Of a stretch of DNA of 42,067 bases, positions 22,330 through 32,924 are shown one piece after another. The stretch is from positions 1-42,067 of the forward strand of contig JAEUJY010000022.1 of NCBI GenBank assembly GCA_016794525.1. Direction: 5' to 3'. A model generated the notes under the pieces. It had not been told where the DNA came from. It was given only the letters and a program-made list of their open reading frames with translations, and made no database searches. Position 1 is the stretch's first letter; each line of letters opens with the position of its first letter. This stretch comes from Myxococcales bacterium (GTDB lineage: Bacteria > Myxococcota_A > Polyangia > Haliangiales > Haliangiaceae). Position numbers and translations under genes: made by a program.

Positions 22330-23088
22330 TCAGCTCGGGCGCGCGGCCTTGCAGATCGCGACGAAGTCGGCCGCCTGGAGCGACGCTCCGCCGACCAGCG
22401 CGCCGTCGATGTCGGGCTGGCGCATCAGCTCGGCGGCGTTGTCGGGCTTGACCGAGCCGCCGTACTGGATCCGCACCGCCGCCGCCATCGCCGGGCCGAG
22501 CTCCTTGCCGAGCCAGCCGCGGATGAACGCGTGGACCTCCTGGGCTTGCCCGGGAGTCGCGGTCCGGCCGGTGCCGATCGCCCACACCGGCTCGTACGCG
22601 ATCACCAGCCGGTCGGCGACCTCCACGCCGAGGCCGCGCAGCGCGCCGAGGTGGGTCTCGACCACCGCGGTGGTCGTGCCGGCGTCGCGCTGGGCCAGGG
22701 TCTCGCCCACGCACACGATCGCGCCCAGGCCGGCGGCCAGCGCGGCGCGGGCTTTTTTGGCGACGGTGTCGTCAGTCTCGCCGAAGAACTGCCGGCGCTC
22801 GCTGTGGCCGATGATGGCCCAGGTGCAGCCGACGTCCTTGAGCATCCCGGGGGCCACCTCGCCGGTGAACGCCCCCTTCTCCTCCCAGTAGCAGTCCTGC
22901 GATGCCACCGCGATCGGCGAGTCCTCCAGGCGCTTGGCCACGGGGTACAGCGCCGTGAACGGCGGGGCCACGCCGACGGCGACGCCCTTGACCGCGGCCA
23001 GCTGGTTCTTCAGCTCGGTGACCAGGGCCAGGGCATCGGCGACGTGCTTGTGCAGCTTCCAGTTGCCTACGACGAACGGGGTGCGCAT
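22330..23088 (-). CDS. tpiA: Triosephosphate isomerase
   Basis: MRTPFVVGNWKLHK start, catalytic-loop IIGHSERR, AYEPVWAIGTG and YGGSVK motifs. The ORF-track N-terminal extension is rejected. Start ATG at 23086-23088. The stop lies 6 bp from the convergent HK stop. Confidence 0.95.
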   Translation of the reverse strand: MRTPFVVGNWKLHKHVADALALVTELKNQLAAVKGVAVGVAPPFTALYPVAKRLEDSPIAVASQDCYWEEKGAFTGEVAPGMLKDVGCTWAIIGHSERRQFFGETDDTVAKKARAALAAGLGAIVCVGETLAQRDAGTTTAVVETHLGALRGLGVEVADRLVIAYEPVWAIGTGRTATPGQAQEVHAFIRGWLGKELGPAMAAAVRIQYGGSVKPDNAAELMRQPDIDGALVGGASLQAADFVAICKAARPS

Positions 23089-23187
23089 CGGCCGCGACTC
23101 TACCCCCAGCCCGCCAGCGGCGTCACGCGACGGCGTCACCGCGCCGACCGCGCCAGCGCGGGCACCACGCTTGCAAGCCGGGTCGGT

Positions 23188-26100
23188 GTGGAGCCGATCG
23201 TCGCTGCACTATCCCGCGCCCGGCGGGGCTGGAGGGACCTCGCGCGCCAGGACGGGCTCGCCTGTGCGCGCTTCTTGCGCCAGGTCGGCGATGATCTCCG
23301 CGCCTGCGGCTTTGCCTCGGTAACCCTCGAGGCCAGCGACGCCGCGGCGGGCCTGATCGCCCAGGCCCACCAGGCAAACGATCTCGCGATCGACGCCGAC
23401 CGCGCCGCGCTCCCCGTGGACTGCCCCGACTTGATGGTGGCCGCCCTGGTGATCGAGCACCCGGGGCTGGCCGCCGATCCTGCGCTGGTCGCGGGGTTGC
23501 GCGACGCGGCGACGGTGATCGACCTGGCGCTCCGAGCGCTCATCGAGGCCACCGCGCGGCGCGCCCAGGCCGCGCGGTACGACCAGCTGTTCGACCACAT
23601 GCGCAACGGCTTCGCCCACTGCCGGGCGATCTTCGATGGCGACCGCTGCATCGACTGGGAGTACCTGCGGGTCAACGAGGCGTTCGCGCGCCAGACCGGC
23701 CTCGACGCCGCGCCCGGCCGCCTGGTCAGCCAGCTGATCGACGGCGTCCGCGCCCACGATCCCGTGCTGTTCGCGCGCTATGGCGCGGTGGCGCGCGGCG
23801 GCGATCCGGTGCGCTTCGAGTACCACGTCGCCGCGCTCGACGAGTGGTTCGAGGTCGCGGCCTACCACGCCGGCCCGGACGAGTTCGTCGCGGTGTTCGA
23901 CGTGATCACCGAACGCAAGCGCACCGAGGCCCGGCTCCACGCCAGCGAGCACCGCTTCCGCGCGATGTTCGAGCAGGCCGCGGTCGGCATCGCGCTGATG
24001 GGACCGAACGGCGAGTTCCGGCGCGCCAACCCCCGGCTGTGCGCCACGCTGGGCTACACCGAGGCCGAGCTGCAGCGCCTGACGTTCGTCGACATCACCC
24101 ACGACGACCACGCGGCGAGCGACCGGGCGCTGCACGGGCCGCTGACCGGCGGCGCGCTGGGGACGGTGGTGCTCGAGAAGCAGCTGGTACGCAAGGACGG
24201 CGGGGCGGTCTGGCACCACGTCACGATCGCCGGCGCCGACGCCGATCCCGACGAGCGCACGTTCGTCGTGATCGCCGAGGACGTCAGCGCGCAGCGCGCG
24301 GCCGAGCGCGGCCGGGCCGAGTCCGAGAACCGGCTGCGGCTGTTCGTCGAGCACGCGCCGGCGGCGATCGCCATGTTCGACCGCGACATGCGGTACCTCG
24401 CGGTGAGCCGACGCTTCATCACCGACTGTCACCTGCCCGACGGCGACCTCGTCGGGCGCCGCCACGACGAGGTGTTCCCGAACCTGCCGCCGCACTGGCA
24501 GGCGATGCACGCGCGCGCGCTGGCCGGCGCGATCGAGCGCTCCGCCGGCGAGGCGTTCGTCCGCCCCGACGGCGAGGTCGAGTGGGTGCGGTGGGAGCTG
24601 TACCCGTGGCGCGACGCCAGCGGCGCGATCGGCGGCTGCGTGCTGTTCGGCGAGACGCTGACCGAGCAGCGCCGCCTGGCGCTGGCGCTGGCGACCAGCG
24701 AGGCCCGCCACCGGGCGATCTTCGAGCAGGCCGGCGTCGGCATCGCCCTGGTCGAGCCCGCGACCGGGCGCTTCGTCGATGGCAACGCGGCGCTGTGCCG
24801 GATCTTCCGGTACTCGCGCGCCGAGCTGCAGCAGCGCTCGTGGCGAGACATCACGCCCCCGGAAGACGTCGCCCAGACCCCGCCCGAGCTCTTCGATCGC
24901 GCCGTCCCGTCGGTGACGATCCACAAGCGCTACCGCTGCGGCGACGGGACGCTGATCGCCGGCCGGGTCACCGTCACCCGCATGACCGCGCCCGACGGCG
25001 CCGCCCTCAACCTGGCCTTCGTCGAGGACGTCACCGAGCAGCGCCGGGCCGAGGAGGCGCTGCGCGAGAGCCAGCGGCGCCTGGCGGTGGTGTTCGAGCA
25101 GTCGCTGGCGGGGATGGCGATCATCCGGACCCGCGACCGCACGGTGGCCGACGTGAGCGAGTCGCTGGTGCGCATGCTCGGGTGGAGCCGCGACGAGTGG
25201 GTCGGTCGCGATCCCGACCAGCTCGGGGTCTTCCTCGATCCGCACGACCGGCTCCGCCTGCGCGCGCTCGGCGGCCACACCCCGACGCCGATCGAGCTCC
25301 AGGTGCGGCGCAAGTCGGGCGAGGTCGGCGACTTCCTGTTGAGCATCGGCCGGATCGAGATCGACGGCGAGCCCTGCTCGATGTGCCTGCTGCACGACAT
25401 CACCGAGCTGCGGCGCGCCGACGCCGCCCGGATCGCCAGCGAGCGCCACCTGGCGGCGTTGATCGAGCTGGCGCCGGTCGGCATCACCGAGATCGATCTG
25501 ACGACCGGCCGGCCGCGCTGGGTCAACGCCCGGCTGTGCGAGCTGACCGGCTACACGGCGGCGGAGCTGGGCGCGATGTCGATCATCGACGATCTGACCG
25601 ATCCGGCCGATCGCGCCGCGTCGCGGGCGCTGGCCGCCGGCCTCGGCGGCGGCACGCCCGAGCGCTCCCAGCTCGAGAAGCGCTACCGCACCAAGGACGG
25701 GCGGACGGTCTGGACCGACGTCGCCGTGGCCGTGCTGCGCGGCGCCGCCGGCGAGGTCACCGGCGCGCTGTCGACGATCCGCGACATCACCGAGCAGCGC
25801 GCCGCGCGCGACGCGCTCGAGCTGCAGGCCCAGGCGCTCAACGCCGCCGCCAACGCGATCGTCATCACCGACCTGCGCGGCGTCATCGAGCGGGTCAACC
25901 CGGCGCTCGTCGCGCTCACCGGGTACCCGGCCGACGAGCTGGTCGGGGCCGACATGCGGATCTTCAGCTCCGGCCGCCAGACGCCGGCGTTCTATCGGAC
26001 GCTGTGGCAGACCATCACCGCCGGCCAGGTGTGGCGCGGCGAGCTGATCAACCGCCGCCAGGACGGCTCGCACTACCACGAGGAGATGACGATCACGCCG

Positions 26101-31866: not shown

Positions 31867-31916
31867 CCCCGCCGGGGCGTGCCCCCGGCGGGGGAGGGCC
31901 TGGCGACAGGCCCTCC
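31867..31916 (-). other. Two adjacent GC-rich hairpins in the gap-pgk intercistronic region (11-bp stem CCCCGCCGGGG / CCCCGGCGGGG, and 8-bp stem GGAGGGCC / GGCCCTCC)
   Basis: Perfect inverted repeats seen in the sequence. They begin 3 nt after the gap stop codon on the transcribed strand. No U-tract follows. Confidence 0.6.
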
Positions 31917-31919
31917 TGG

Positions 31920-32924
31920 CTACAGCCGCTCGCTGACGAACTTCGCGAGGTCGAACAGGCGCTGCGAGTAGCCCATCTCGTTGTCGTACCAGGCCATCAC
32001 CTTGACCTGATCGCCGGCGACGGTGGTGAGCGCGGCGTCGACGGTCGACGAGTGGCGGTCGCCGTTGTAGTCGCACGACACCAGCGGCTCGTCCGACACC
32101 GCGAGGATGCCCTTGAGCGGGCCGGCGGCGGCGGCGCGGAACGCGTCGTTGACCTCCTTGACGCTGGCCTTCTTCTCGAGGCGCGCGGTCAGGTCGACCA
32201 GCGAGACGTTGGGCGTCGGCACGCGGATGGCCATGCCGTCGAGCTTGCCGGCCATCGCCGGCAGCACTTCCTTGAGCGCCTTGGCGGCGCCGGTCGTGGT
32301 CGGGATCATCGACAGCGCGGCGGCGCGGGCGCGGCGCAGGTCCTTGTGCGGCAGGTCGAGGATCTGCTGGTCGTTGGTGTAGCTGTGGATCGTCGTCATG
32401 ATGCCCGACACGATCCCGAAGGTCTCGTGCAGCACCTTGGCCACCGGCGCCAGGCAGTTGGTCGTGCACGACGCGTTCGAGATGACGTGGTGCTCGGCCG
32501 GCTTGTAGGCCTCGAGGTTGATGCCGCAGCACAGCGTGACGTCGGGGTCCTTGGCCGGGGCGCTGATCAGCACCTTCTTGGCGGCGGCCAGGTGCTTGCC
32601 GGCGCCGGCCTTGTCGACGAACTTGCCGGTGCACTCGAGGACGATGTCGACGCCGTGGTCCTTCCACGGGATCTCCGCCGGGTCCTTCTTGGCGGTGATC
32701 GTCACCTTGTCACCGTTGATGACCAGGGCGCCGTCCTCGCTGGTGACCGTGCCGGGGAACCGGCCGTGCACCGAGTCGTGCTTGAGCAGGTGCCCGAGCG
32801 TGCCGACGTCGGTGAGGTCGTTGATGAGGACGAGATCGAACGTGCCCGGGGCGTCGGCGAGACAGCGGACGAAGCCGCGACCGATGCGACCGAAGCCATT
32901 GATACCTACGCGAACCTTGGCCAT
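31920..32924 (-). CDS. gap: Glyceraldehyde-3-phosphate dehydrogenase (type I)
   Basis: MAKVRVGINGFGRIGR N-terminus, the active-site SCTTNCLAP motif and WYDNEMGYS C-terminal motif. The ORF-track N-terminal extension is rejected. Start ATG at 32922-32924 with SD GGAG 6 nt upstream. Confidence 0.95.
   Translation of the reverse strand: MAKVRVGINGFGRIGRGFVRCLADAPGTFDLVLINDLTDVGTLGHLLKHDSVHGRFPGTVTSEDGALVINGDKVTITAKKDPAEIPWKDHGVDIVLECTGKFVDKAGAGKHLAAAKKVLISAPAKDPDVTLCCGINLEAYKPAEHHVISNASCTTNCLAPVAKVLHETFGIVSGIMTTIHSYTNDQQILDLPHKDLRRARAAALSMIPTTTGAAKALKEVLPAMAGKLDGMAIRVPTPNVSLVDLTARLEKKASVKEVNDAFRAAAAGPLKGILAVSDEPLVSCDYNGDRHSSTVDAALTTVAGDQVKVMAWYDNEMGYSQRLFDLAKFVSERL

Follow-up and report, generated by a model that had tools for sequence, protein, structure and literature searches.

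The glycolytic gene set gap-pgk-tpiA is split in a complete 42,067-nt contig, here called the window, from a metagenome-assembled genome (MAG) of an uncultured "Myxococcales bacterium". On the minus strand gap and pgk remain neighbours, and 7,544 nt separate the pgk stop codon from the start of tpiA, an interval that holds the gene of a Ser/Thr kinase with a GGDEF-like domain (the kinase, in what follows) on the same strand and a hybrid histidine kinase gene, HK2, on the opposite strand. The tpiA gene now stands solitary, flanked by HK2 and by another histidine kinase gene, HK1. We consider it likely that the locus has a layered history and that the former operon members are separately promoted, an account that draws on directly observed gene identities, insertion boundaries, event order, motif conservation and domain folds. 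The starting point would have been a gap-pgk-tpiA(-secG-dapF) cluster, remodelled in three layers. In an old layer, belonging to a Kofleriaceae-type clade, the gene of a 950-amino-acid cytoplasmic multi-sensor Ser/Thr kinase would have been placed between pgk and tpiA, after which kinase and tpiA would have stayed adjacent, each having a -10 hexamer 5-9 nt ahead of the start codon and lacking a Shine-Dalgarno (SD) sequence. In a second layer, secG would have been lost from behind tpiA and HK1 then inserted immediately after tpiA, in the ancestor of the window and the relatives L081 and L082. In a third, recent layer, found in the window and in one metagenomic scaffold (L166), the paralogous HK2 would have entered between the kinase and tpiA, 6 nt beyond the stop codon of the former and 17 nt upstream of the -35 element of the latter, and would have been tolerated because the tpiA promoter was left intact. 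The former operon would now consist of separately promoted units: gap(-pgk), which has a conventional promoter and an SD sequence, followed by the kinase and by tpiA.

The split is unusual outside the closest relatives of the window. Scanning a genome collection with the PGK protein gave 80 loci, 73 of them with both pgk and tpiA visible, and in 69 of these 73 loci from other genomes tpiA lies on the same strand no more than 400 nt downstream of pgk, as in Anaeromyxobacter, Sorangium, Polyangium and Byssovorax. Four loci depart from this pattern: two from Dehalococcoidia, and the two nearest to the window, namely L001 (a Kofleriaceae MAG; PGK identity 82%) and L002 (77%). The pgk-tpiA gap of L001 and L002 is about 3 kb and is occupied by an orthologue of the window kinase, giving the order gap-pgk-kinase-tpiA-secG without a histidine kinase; in a further locus, L003, the N-terminus of the kinase follows pgk. 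Judged by this distribution, the ancestral gap-pgk-tpiA set was contiguous, and the window shows it interrupted.

The kinase belongs to a family of more than 120 full-length homologues of about 940-960 residues, mostly labelled Kofleriaceae. Its gene contexts were sampled over kinase identities from 97% down to 46%, relatives being compared by tblastn of proteins from open reading frames (ORFs) filtered by third-position GC content (GC3), and a metagenome scan with generic kinase peptide patterns gave seven true family members among 80 loci. Wherever enough flank is available, tpiA lies directly downstream of the kinase on the same strand (14 of 14 Kofleriaceae-type loci: L001, L002, L081-L090, L168 and L169). 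The outer neighbours vary: pgk is directly upstream of the kinase in 11 loci and about 2.8 kb away in L089 and L090, the upstream neighbour in L085 is a sigma-54 activator, and the sole pgk of L086 is downstream and on the opposite strand. On the other side, tpiA is followed by secG-dapF in the deep branches and by other genes in the sub-clade of the window. Since the kinase-tpiA adjacency persists while its outer neighbours vary, the stable unit is the kinase-tpiA pair. The deepest branches carry gap-pgk-kinase-tpiA-secG-dapF, which, from the loci sampled, is the ancestral order of the family. Kinase identity to the window is 97% in L081 and L082 (GCA_016707895.1 and GCA_016708565.1), 83% in L083, 80% in L084 and 75% in L085. 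Both L081 and L082 have a contiguous gap-pgk-kinase-tpiA, then a convergent orthologue of HK1. The spacer between kinase and tpiA is as short as 12-32 nt in relatives and measures 94 nt in the lineage that received HK2.

The boundaries of the HK2 block can be placed to the base. Window and L081 are colinear from 40663 down to 27685 at 92.6% nucleotide identity and from 23143 down to 16268 at 89.8%, and the 4,541 nt at 23144-27684 of the window stand in place of 32 nt of L081. One edge is exactly the stop codon of HK2, convergent with that of the kinase, and the other, at 23144, abuts the tpiA promoter region at the 17-nt distance given above. The scaffold L166, from an independent European Nucleotide Archive metagenome and another sample, carries the kinase 3' end, an HK2-like gene and the tpiA 5' end, and its junction, TGACCGCGCTCA, is identical to that of the window. 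The kinase 3' end is 94.5% identical between window and L166, making them sisters relative to L081 (94.5% versus 92.9% and 92.0%). The histidine kinase itself is only 77-86% identical at the nucleotide level, and a PAS unit of about 121 residues in the window HK2 (24303-24665, plus strand) is missing from the orthologous insertion of L166. A single insertion of HK2 in the common ancestor of window and L166 is sufficient for these comparative data. HK2 is carried only by the window and L166, relatives at about 92% nucleotide identity lack it, and no HK2 orthologue above 70% identity was found besides that of L166; the next homologue (L167), 58% identical at the protein level, lies in an unrelated context in a Polyangiaceae MAG, where its stop codon is followed at 7 nt by a convergent gene. 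By its distribution, the HK2 block is thus a recent, lineage-specific insertion of 4.54 kb. No terminal inverted repeats, target-site duplication or flanking direct repeats were found at 23144 and 27684, and the block holds no transposase or integrase and no gene other than the histidine kinase ORF. A repeat search around it turned up no element termini, the matches being confined to similarity among PAS repeats and to GC-rich sequence expected by chance. The start of HK2 is annotated at TTG 23275 in the database protein P0121 (1469 residues, PGAP), and the L166 homologue begins at the equivalent of GTG 23188 (1498 residues), which leaves 99 nt between the divergent HK2 and tpiA starts.

Could the block be an assembly artefact, a chimeric join through the repeat formed by HK1 and HK2? 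The window is a whole MAG contig and the two genes are paralogous, with about 74% nucleotide identity over 2.3 kb, but an assembler would not be misled by so low an identity, the relatives match both flanks colinearly to the base, and L166, an independent scaffold, repeats the junction and gene order. HK2 is therefore not a misassembly; we regard the chance of an artefact as negligible. Hardly more credible is the insertion of kinase and HK2 together as one 7.5-kb unit that uncoupled tpiA. In the window alone the two genes do fill the entire pgk-tpiA interval, yet relatives with a 97%-identical kinase have pgk-kinase-tpiA and no HK2, the kinase precedes tpiA in every sampled locus down to 46% identity, and the promoter-like element of tpiA exists without HK2. 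A reading of the window from its sequence only, which preceded this work, had proposed such a 7.5-kb insertion into the gap-pgk-tpiA set. Its gene coordinates, the minus strand and the separation of about 7.5 kb agree with the Pfam matches and the measured distance, and an interruption did take place, as the contiguous loci elsewhere attest; that it was one event does not hold, given an old kinase linked to tpiA throughout the family and a recent HK2. Within the family tpiA is never adjacent to pgk, which taken by itself would speak against an insertion, but the outgroups clearly show one.

Two other origins of HK2 were considered and rejected. A recent duplication of HK1 in situ is contradicted by the HK1/HK2 identity of 74%, far below the roughly 93% of the flanks between strains, and HK2 is therefore not a recent local copy of HK1. 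Loss of HK2 from the relatives by deletion fails on parsimony, as none of the 14 other family loci with a visible kinase-tpiA junction has a histidine kinase there.

HK1 and tpiA converge, their stop codons lying 6 nt apart, and the same stop-to-stop layout, TGA-N6-TCA, occurs at 22321-22332 for HK1 and at 27682-27693 for HK2. Both genes encode hybrid histidine kinases with HisKA, HATPase_c, a C-terminal receiver and multiple PAS domains by Pfam. HK1 is present in L081 and L082 and missing from L083-L085. In L083, 3 nt separate the stop codons of tpiA and of a convergent gene encoding 415 residues, tpiA abuts the same gene in L084, and in the window, L081 and L082 HK1 sits between the two. From this phylogenetic distribution, HK1 was inserted earlier than HK2. 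It is flanked by a 7-nt direct repeat, GGCCTGA (19170-19178 region), with no other hallmark of an insertion element.

How, then, is tpiA expressed once separated from pgk? The kinase and tpiA probably each have their own leaderless-type promoter, already present before HK2 arrived, as judged from the conservation and rarity of the motifs. The element TGACG-N17/18-TA[GC]AGT-N7-9-ATG before tpiA is common to the window, L166, L081-L085 and L168; relatives that lack HK2, with tpiA immediately behind the kinase, already have it. In L001 the hexamer is TAGCCT, and other loci have AT-rich hexamers at the same distance (TAAGAC, TACGAC, TACACC, TTATGT, TAATTC), several of them preceded by TG. In all kinase-linked loci a TA-initial or otherwise AT-rich hexamer precedes the tpiA ATG by 6-9 nt, and none of them has a GGAG or GAGG in the 20 nt next to that ATG. 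Eleven Myxococcota controls with contiguous pgk-tpiA lack such a hexamer, and at least eight of them have a clear GGAG or GAGG 5-12 nt before the tpiA start. The kinase start is similarly marked: TACAAT ends 7 nt before its GTG in the window, and a TAnnAT hexamer (TACAAT, TATGAT, TACCAT or TAAGAT) stands 5-7 nt before the start, without an SD sequence, in 12 of 13 loci, counting L169 if an upstream in-frame GTG is the kinase start. This hexamer is kept whatever gene stands upstream, including loci without pgk upstream; in L085 (8462-13611), where the kinase-tpiA pair lies behind the sigma-54 activator, the arrangements are still TACAAT-6-GTG and TAGAGT-7-ATG.

These hexamers are rare in a window of 74% GC. 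TAnnnT occurs 17 times on both strands of the 42 kb, TAnnAT five times and TA[GC]AGT once, at tpiA; on the minus strand of 22000-33600 the single TAnnAT copy is that at the kinase start. Seven of the 17 TAnnnT copies lie 6-8 nt before start codons that open long ORFs with GC3 of at least 0.93, the kinase and tpiA copies among them and two others (-17233 and +17256) forming a back-to-back divergent pair, and the gap -10 hexamer, TAGGGT at 32958, is another of the 17. With seven of 17 hexamers at a leaderless distance from starts, leaderless transcription looks frequent in this organism, and the locus suggests the same of its poorly known, uncultured family. Leaderless mRNAs have been described genome-wide in Actinobacteria and Deinococcus, and the seven cases in the window resemble them in having TAnnnT 6-8 nt before the start and no SD sequence. 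A literature search returned nothing relevant on leaderless transcription in myxobacteria, Kofleriaceae included.

Several observations weigh against separate promoters for kinase and tpiA. A scan of 22000-33600 for consensus sigma-70 promoters and terminators found nothing, the gap -10 hexamer also being under the threshold of the scanner, and the case for promoters therefore rests only on conservation and rarity. The tpiA hexamers of distant members end in C rather than T (TAAGAC, TACGAC, TACACC). In L168, the exception among the kinase loci, the nearest TAnnnT is 33 nt upstream of the annotated kinase start. Lastly, no terminator-like structure was seen between pgk and the kinase, so that co-transcription is possible.

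That last point raises the alternative that most kinase expression stems from the gap promoter by read-through, in a gap-pgk-kinase operon in which kinase dosage would track glycolytic expression. The genes are on the same strand, pgk is directly upstream of the kinase in most of the loci, and the spacer is short (45-162 nt in relatives) and in the window folds no better than its shuffles (z = -0.28). On the other hand, the kinase has its own TAnnAT and no SD sequence even in L085 and L086, pgk is kilobases from it in L089 and L090, and the strong hairpins after gap may already cut downstream transcription. The gap-pgk spacer has a minimum free energy of -51.6 kcal/mol (z = -4.3), and none of 200 shuffles folds as well; its hairpin module of about 72 nt is duplicated in L082 (8583-8751), is absent in L084, where the spacer is 10 nt, and has no further copy within the window. 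We consider expression mainly by read-through unlikely, while noting that read-through and an internal kinase promoter are compatible with each other. The sequence-only reading had described a 90-bp gap with TACAAT between pgk and the kinase, which is right but for one nucleotide (89 nt), and had suggested read-through across it; this is possible but not needed, as the kinase keeps its own conserved hexamer near its start. The same reading had credited tpiA, as uncoupled from gap-pgk, with an apparent leaderless promoter of its own, TAGAGT. The element is upheld by its rarity and conservation, but it predates HK2, and it was not HK2 that uncoupled tpiA.

The kinase combines a pseudo-receiver, GAF, GGDEF-like, Hanks kinase and C-terminal H-NOX/V4R-like domain (Table 1), assigned by Pfam, by family comparison and by fold searches with AlphaFold2 models (mean predicted local distance difference test scores of 91.9 and 85.7 for two models). 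The catalytic core is intact: K481, E500, H577-R578-D579, K581, N584, D598 and A619-P620-E621 are invariant in 19 sequences, and the Hanks-type motifs (Gly-rich loop, VAIK Lys, alphaC Glu, HRDxKxxN, DFG Asp and APE) are present, with DVG (D598) where DFG is expected. The receiver has no phospho-acceptor Asp: family members carry A, G or P at the site that follows beta3 (VLVG-S in the window). The GAF region of the window scores below threshold (18.1 versus 27 bits); 9 of 12 members match GAF_3, with E-values down to 1.8e-9, and GAF structures are among the top fold matches. The GGDEF-like domain resembles PleD-type cyclases in its Pfam match and in the invariant RxxD (R335, D338), five residues before the signature, and differs from them in its signature, A344-G-D-D-L348 in place of GG[D/E]EF, and in a Pfam match that spans only the first two thirds of the domain. 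Close relatives have GGDDL, GGDDF or GDDDM, and distant members GGDE[L/F/I/M]. Also invariant are N311 and D320, at positions taken to correspond to the guanine-binding residues of PleD. This domain is more likely to be a module for binding cyclic di-GMP (c-di-GMP) or for regulation than an active cyclase in this clade.

The C-terminal domain has no match even at E = 10 in a profile search against PDB sequences and was identified only by fold comparison, which gave the H-NOX fold with V4R structures as neighbours. The window has no match to V4R (PF02830); 8 of 15 family members match, with E-values down to 1e-4, and the L001 and L002 orthologues score 17.6-19.9 bits, under the cut-off of 31 bits. 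Unlike in H-NOX and V4R sensors, the haem-proximal His and the YxSxR motif are missing and the domain is fused to a Hanks kinase. Helix 81-100, whose correspondence to that of H-NOX was judged by the order of secondary-structure elements and not by residue-level superposition, has invariant G88, R89, T91, A94, T95, F96 and F100 and no His; beyond it, WxRYHxW leads into a first strand of variable sequence. Invariant in the domain across the family are R11, H14, R16, R89, T91, T95, R122, H124 and W126, and invariant Arg, His and Thr would line a putative non-haem H-NOX/V4R-like pocket. Distant members carry at the C-terminus a CxxxGxxxC cysteine pair of the kind typical for V4R-like domains, and both cysteines have been lost in the clade of the window (27694-27760, minus strand). 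We found no paper on this domain architecture or on the linkage of such a kinase to tpiA.

The gene map underlying these comparisons (Table 1) was settled by GC3 and Pfam, long ORFs being found in every frame because of the high GC content. The gap ORF spans 31920-33014, with the true start at ATG 32924 giving 334 residues as in relatives, and the tpiA ORF spans 22330-23139, with the true start at ATG 23088 (MRTPFVVGNWK). As a separate observation, the triosephosphate isomerase (TIM) of kinase-linked genomes has clade-specific residues, such as Thr3 (MRTPF; window 23080-23082) where most other Myxococcota sampled have K or R, and K, R or G at several surface positions; these were not used as evidence, since shared ancestry explains them equally well. 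The last 15 or so nucleotides of pgk and its stop codon are tandemly duplicated at 30593-30650 (minus strand), GCCGTCAAGTGA ... GCCGTGAAGTGA, and this duplication of about 40 nt of the pgk 3' end accounts for a pgk-kinase spacer of 89 nt instead of the 49 nt of L081 and L082. Neither secG nor dapF is present in the window, no Rfam family reached gathering score anywhere in the window, and exact-protein look-ups of the window PGK and of P0121 returned no record. Directly upstream of gap lie giant Cys-rich proteins with MopE-type repeats (33496-40565, minus strand; 114-7096 in L081), a synteny kept in L001, L081-L084, L168 and L169. Elsewhere in the window, a 923-residue ORF (8739-11510, minus strand) encodes a bacterial homologue of the eukaryotic Major Vault Protein, with a match to its shoulder (PF11978, 4.6e-20) and Vault_3 repeats (2.5e-11).

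Table 1. Features of the window and domains of the kinase (domain positions in amino acid residues, aa)
Feature	Position	Strand	Details
HK1	coding sequence 19294-22323; block 19179..22323	+	1009 aa
tpiA, triosephosphate isomerase	22330-23088	-	252 aa; Pfam TIM 2.3e-94; 97% aa identity to L081
tpiA promoter-like element	23097..23126	-	GTGACG 23126-23121, 18-nt spacer, TAGAGT 23102-23097, 8 nt to ATG
HK2	coding sequence 23188-27684; block 23144..27684	+	1498 aa; Pfam PAS x6, HisKA, HATPase_c, Response_reg
Ser/Thr kinase with GGDEF	27691-30543	-	950 aa; Pfam Pkinase and GGDEF
pgk-to-kinase spacer	30544..30632	-	89 nt; holds TACAAT 30556-30551
pgk, phosphoglycerate kinase	30633-31832	-	399 aa; Pfam PGK 1.1e-147; 98% aa identity to L081
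gap-to-pgk spacer	31833..31919	-	two strong stem-loops, no T-run
gap, glyceraldehyde-3-phosphate dehydrogenase	31920-32924	-	334 aa; Pfam Gp_dh_N and Gp_dh_C; 93-97% aa identity to 334-aa genes of L081-L084
gap promoter-like element	32953..32981	-	TCGACA-N17-TAGGGT, 28-nt leader, GGAGA SD; conserved in L081-L084
Seven leaderless-type hexamers	+17256, +17922, -17233, -12334, -3408, -23102, -30556	as signed	
Kinase: pseudo-receiver	aa 5-103		CheY-like (beta-alpha)5 fold, without phospho-acceptor Asp
Kinase: GAF	aa ~111-264		Pfam family matches and fold search
Kinase: GGDEF-like	aa 267-365		Pfam GGDEF; AGDDL; RxxD I-site kept
Kinase: Hanks kinase	aa 452-698		Pfam Pkinase 1.9e-38; all catalytic residues invariant
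Kinase: H-NOX/V4R-like	aa 750-950		AlphaFold2 model and fold search

Compared with the canonical gap-pgk-tpiA(-secG) cluster, the locus retains the same genes, order and strand and the gap promoter with its SD sequence. It differs in the 2.85-kb kinase gene between pgk and tpiA in the whole clade and in the loss at tpiA of the SD-type coupling to pgk that is seen in other Myxococcota, the -10 hexamer being at a leaderless distance; in the window, moreover, HK2 and HK1 isolate tpiA and secG is gone.

Why should the kinase gene have stayed beside tpiA through every rearrangement except the HK2 insertion? One answer, possible but doubtful, is that the linkage reflects function: on the model of Pkn4 (below), the kinase would detect a small molecule and act on a protein of the triose-phosphate node. 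Just as tentatively, this previously undescribed family might be a Kofleriaceae regulator dedicated to that node, with a metabolite, a gas or c-di-GMP as its input and TIM or a neighbouring glycolytic enzyme as its phosphorylation target; a dedicated role would explain why the gene remained by tpiA. There is a precedent in Myxococcus xanthus, where Pkn4 phosphorylates 6-phosphofructokinase (PFK) (PMC1262709, citing Nariya and Inouye 2002, 2005). Both cases would tie a myxobacterial eukaryotic-like Ser/Thr kinase to a glycolytic enzyme. They differ in that the node here would be TIM and lower glycolysis, the kinase is a far larger multi-sensor protein, and the link comes only from conserved adjacency. 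The pkn4 and pfk genes, too, are neighbours.

The other answer, somewhat more probable and not far short of an even chance, is that the adjacency is a frozen accident without function. With the tpiA promoter in or after the kinase 3' end, most separations would silence an essential gene, and the linkage may then be a structural constraint: the kinase-tpiA spacer shrinks to a few dozen nucleotides or fewer, the tpiA -35 element overlaps the kinase stop codon in L083 and L085, and the sole tolerated separation, by HK2, arose where the spacer measured 94 nt and spared the promoter. Myxococcota also encode very many such kinases, in arbitrary contexts, and adjacency alone is weak evidence of function. 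These considerations count against a functional linkage. Against an accident, the linkage survives deep divergence while both outer neighbours turn over, the Pkn4 case is a precedent in Myxococcota for control of a glycolytic enzyme by an adjacent kinase, and an accident does not explain the retention of a full-length kinase with intact catalytic motifs in more than 120 homologues.

As a plain matter of gene order, the finding is ordinary for a signalling-rich myxobacterial genome and of specialist interest. The locus nevertheless offers a clean, dated series of steps in the dismantling of a textbook operon, in which internal leaderless promoters would have come first, after which foreign genes could enter between the one-time operon partners and do no harm. 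What lends it moderate wider interest is that a novel multi-sensor kinase is coupled to tpiA throughout the family. If the kinase does control lower glycolysis, it would be the second case in Myxococcota, after Pkn4 and PFK, of eukaryotic-like phosphorylation acting on central carbon metabolism, and it would have unusual inputs, an H-NOX/V4R-like pocket and a c-di-GMP-type module, with a ligand that could be found.

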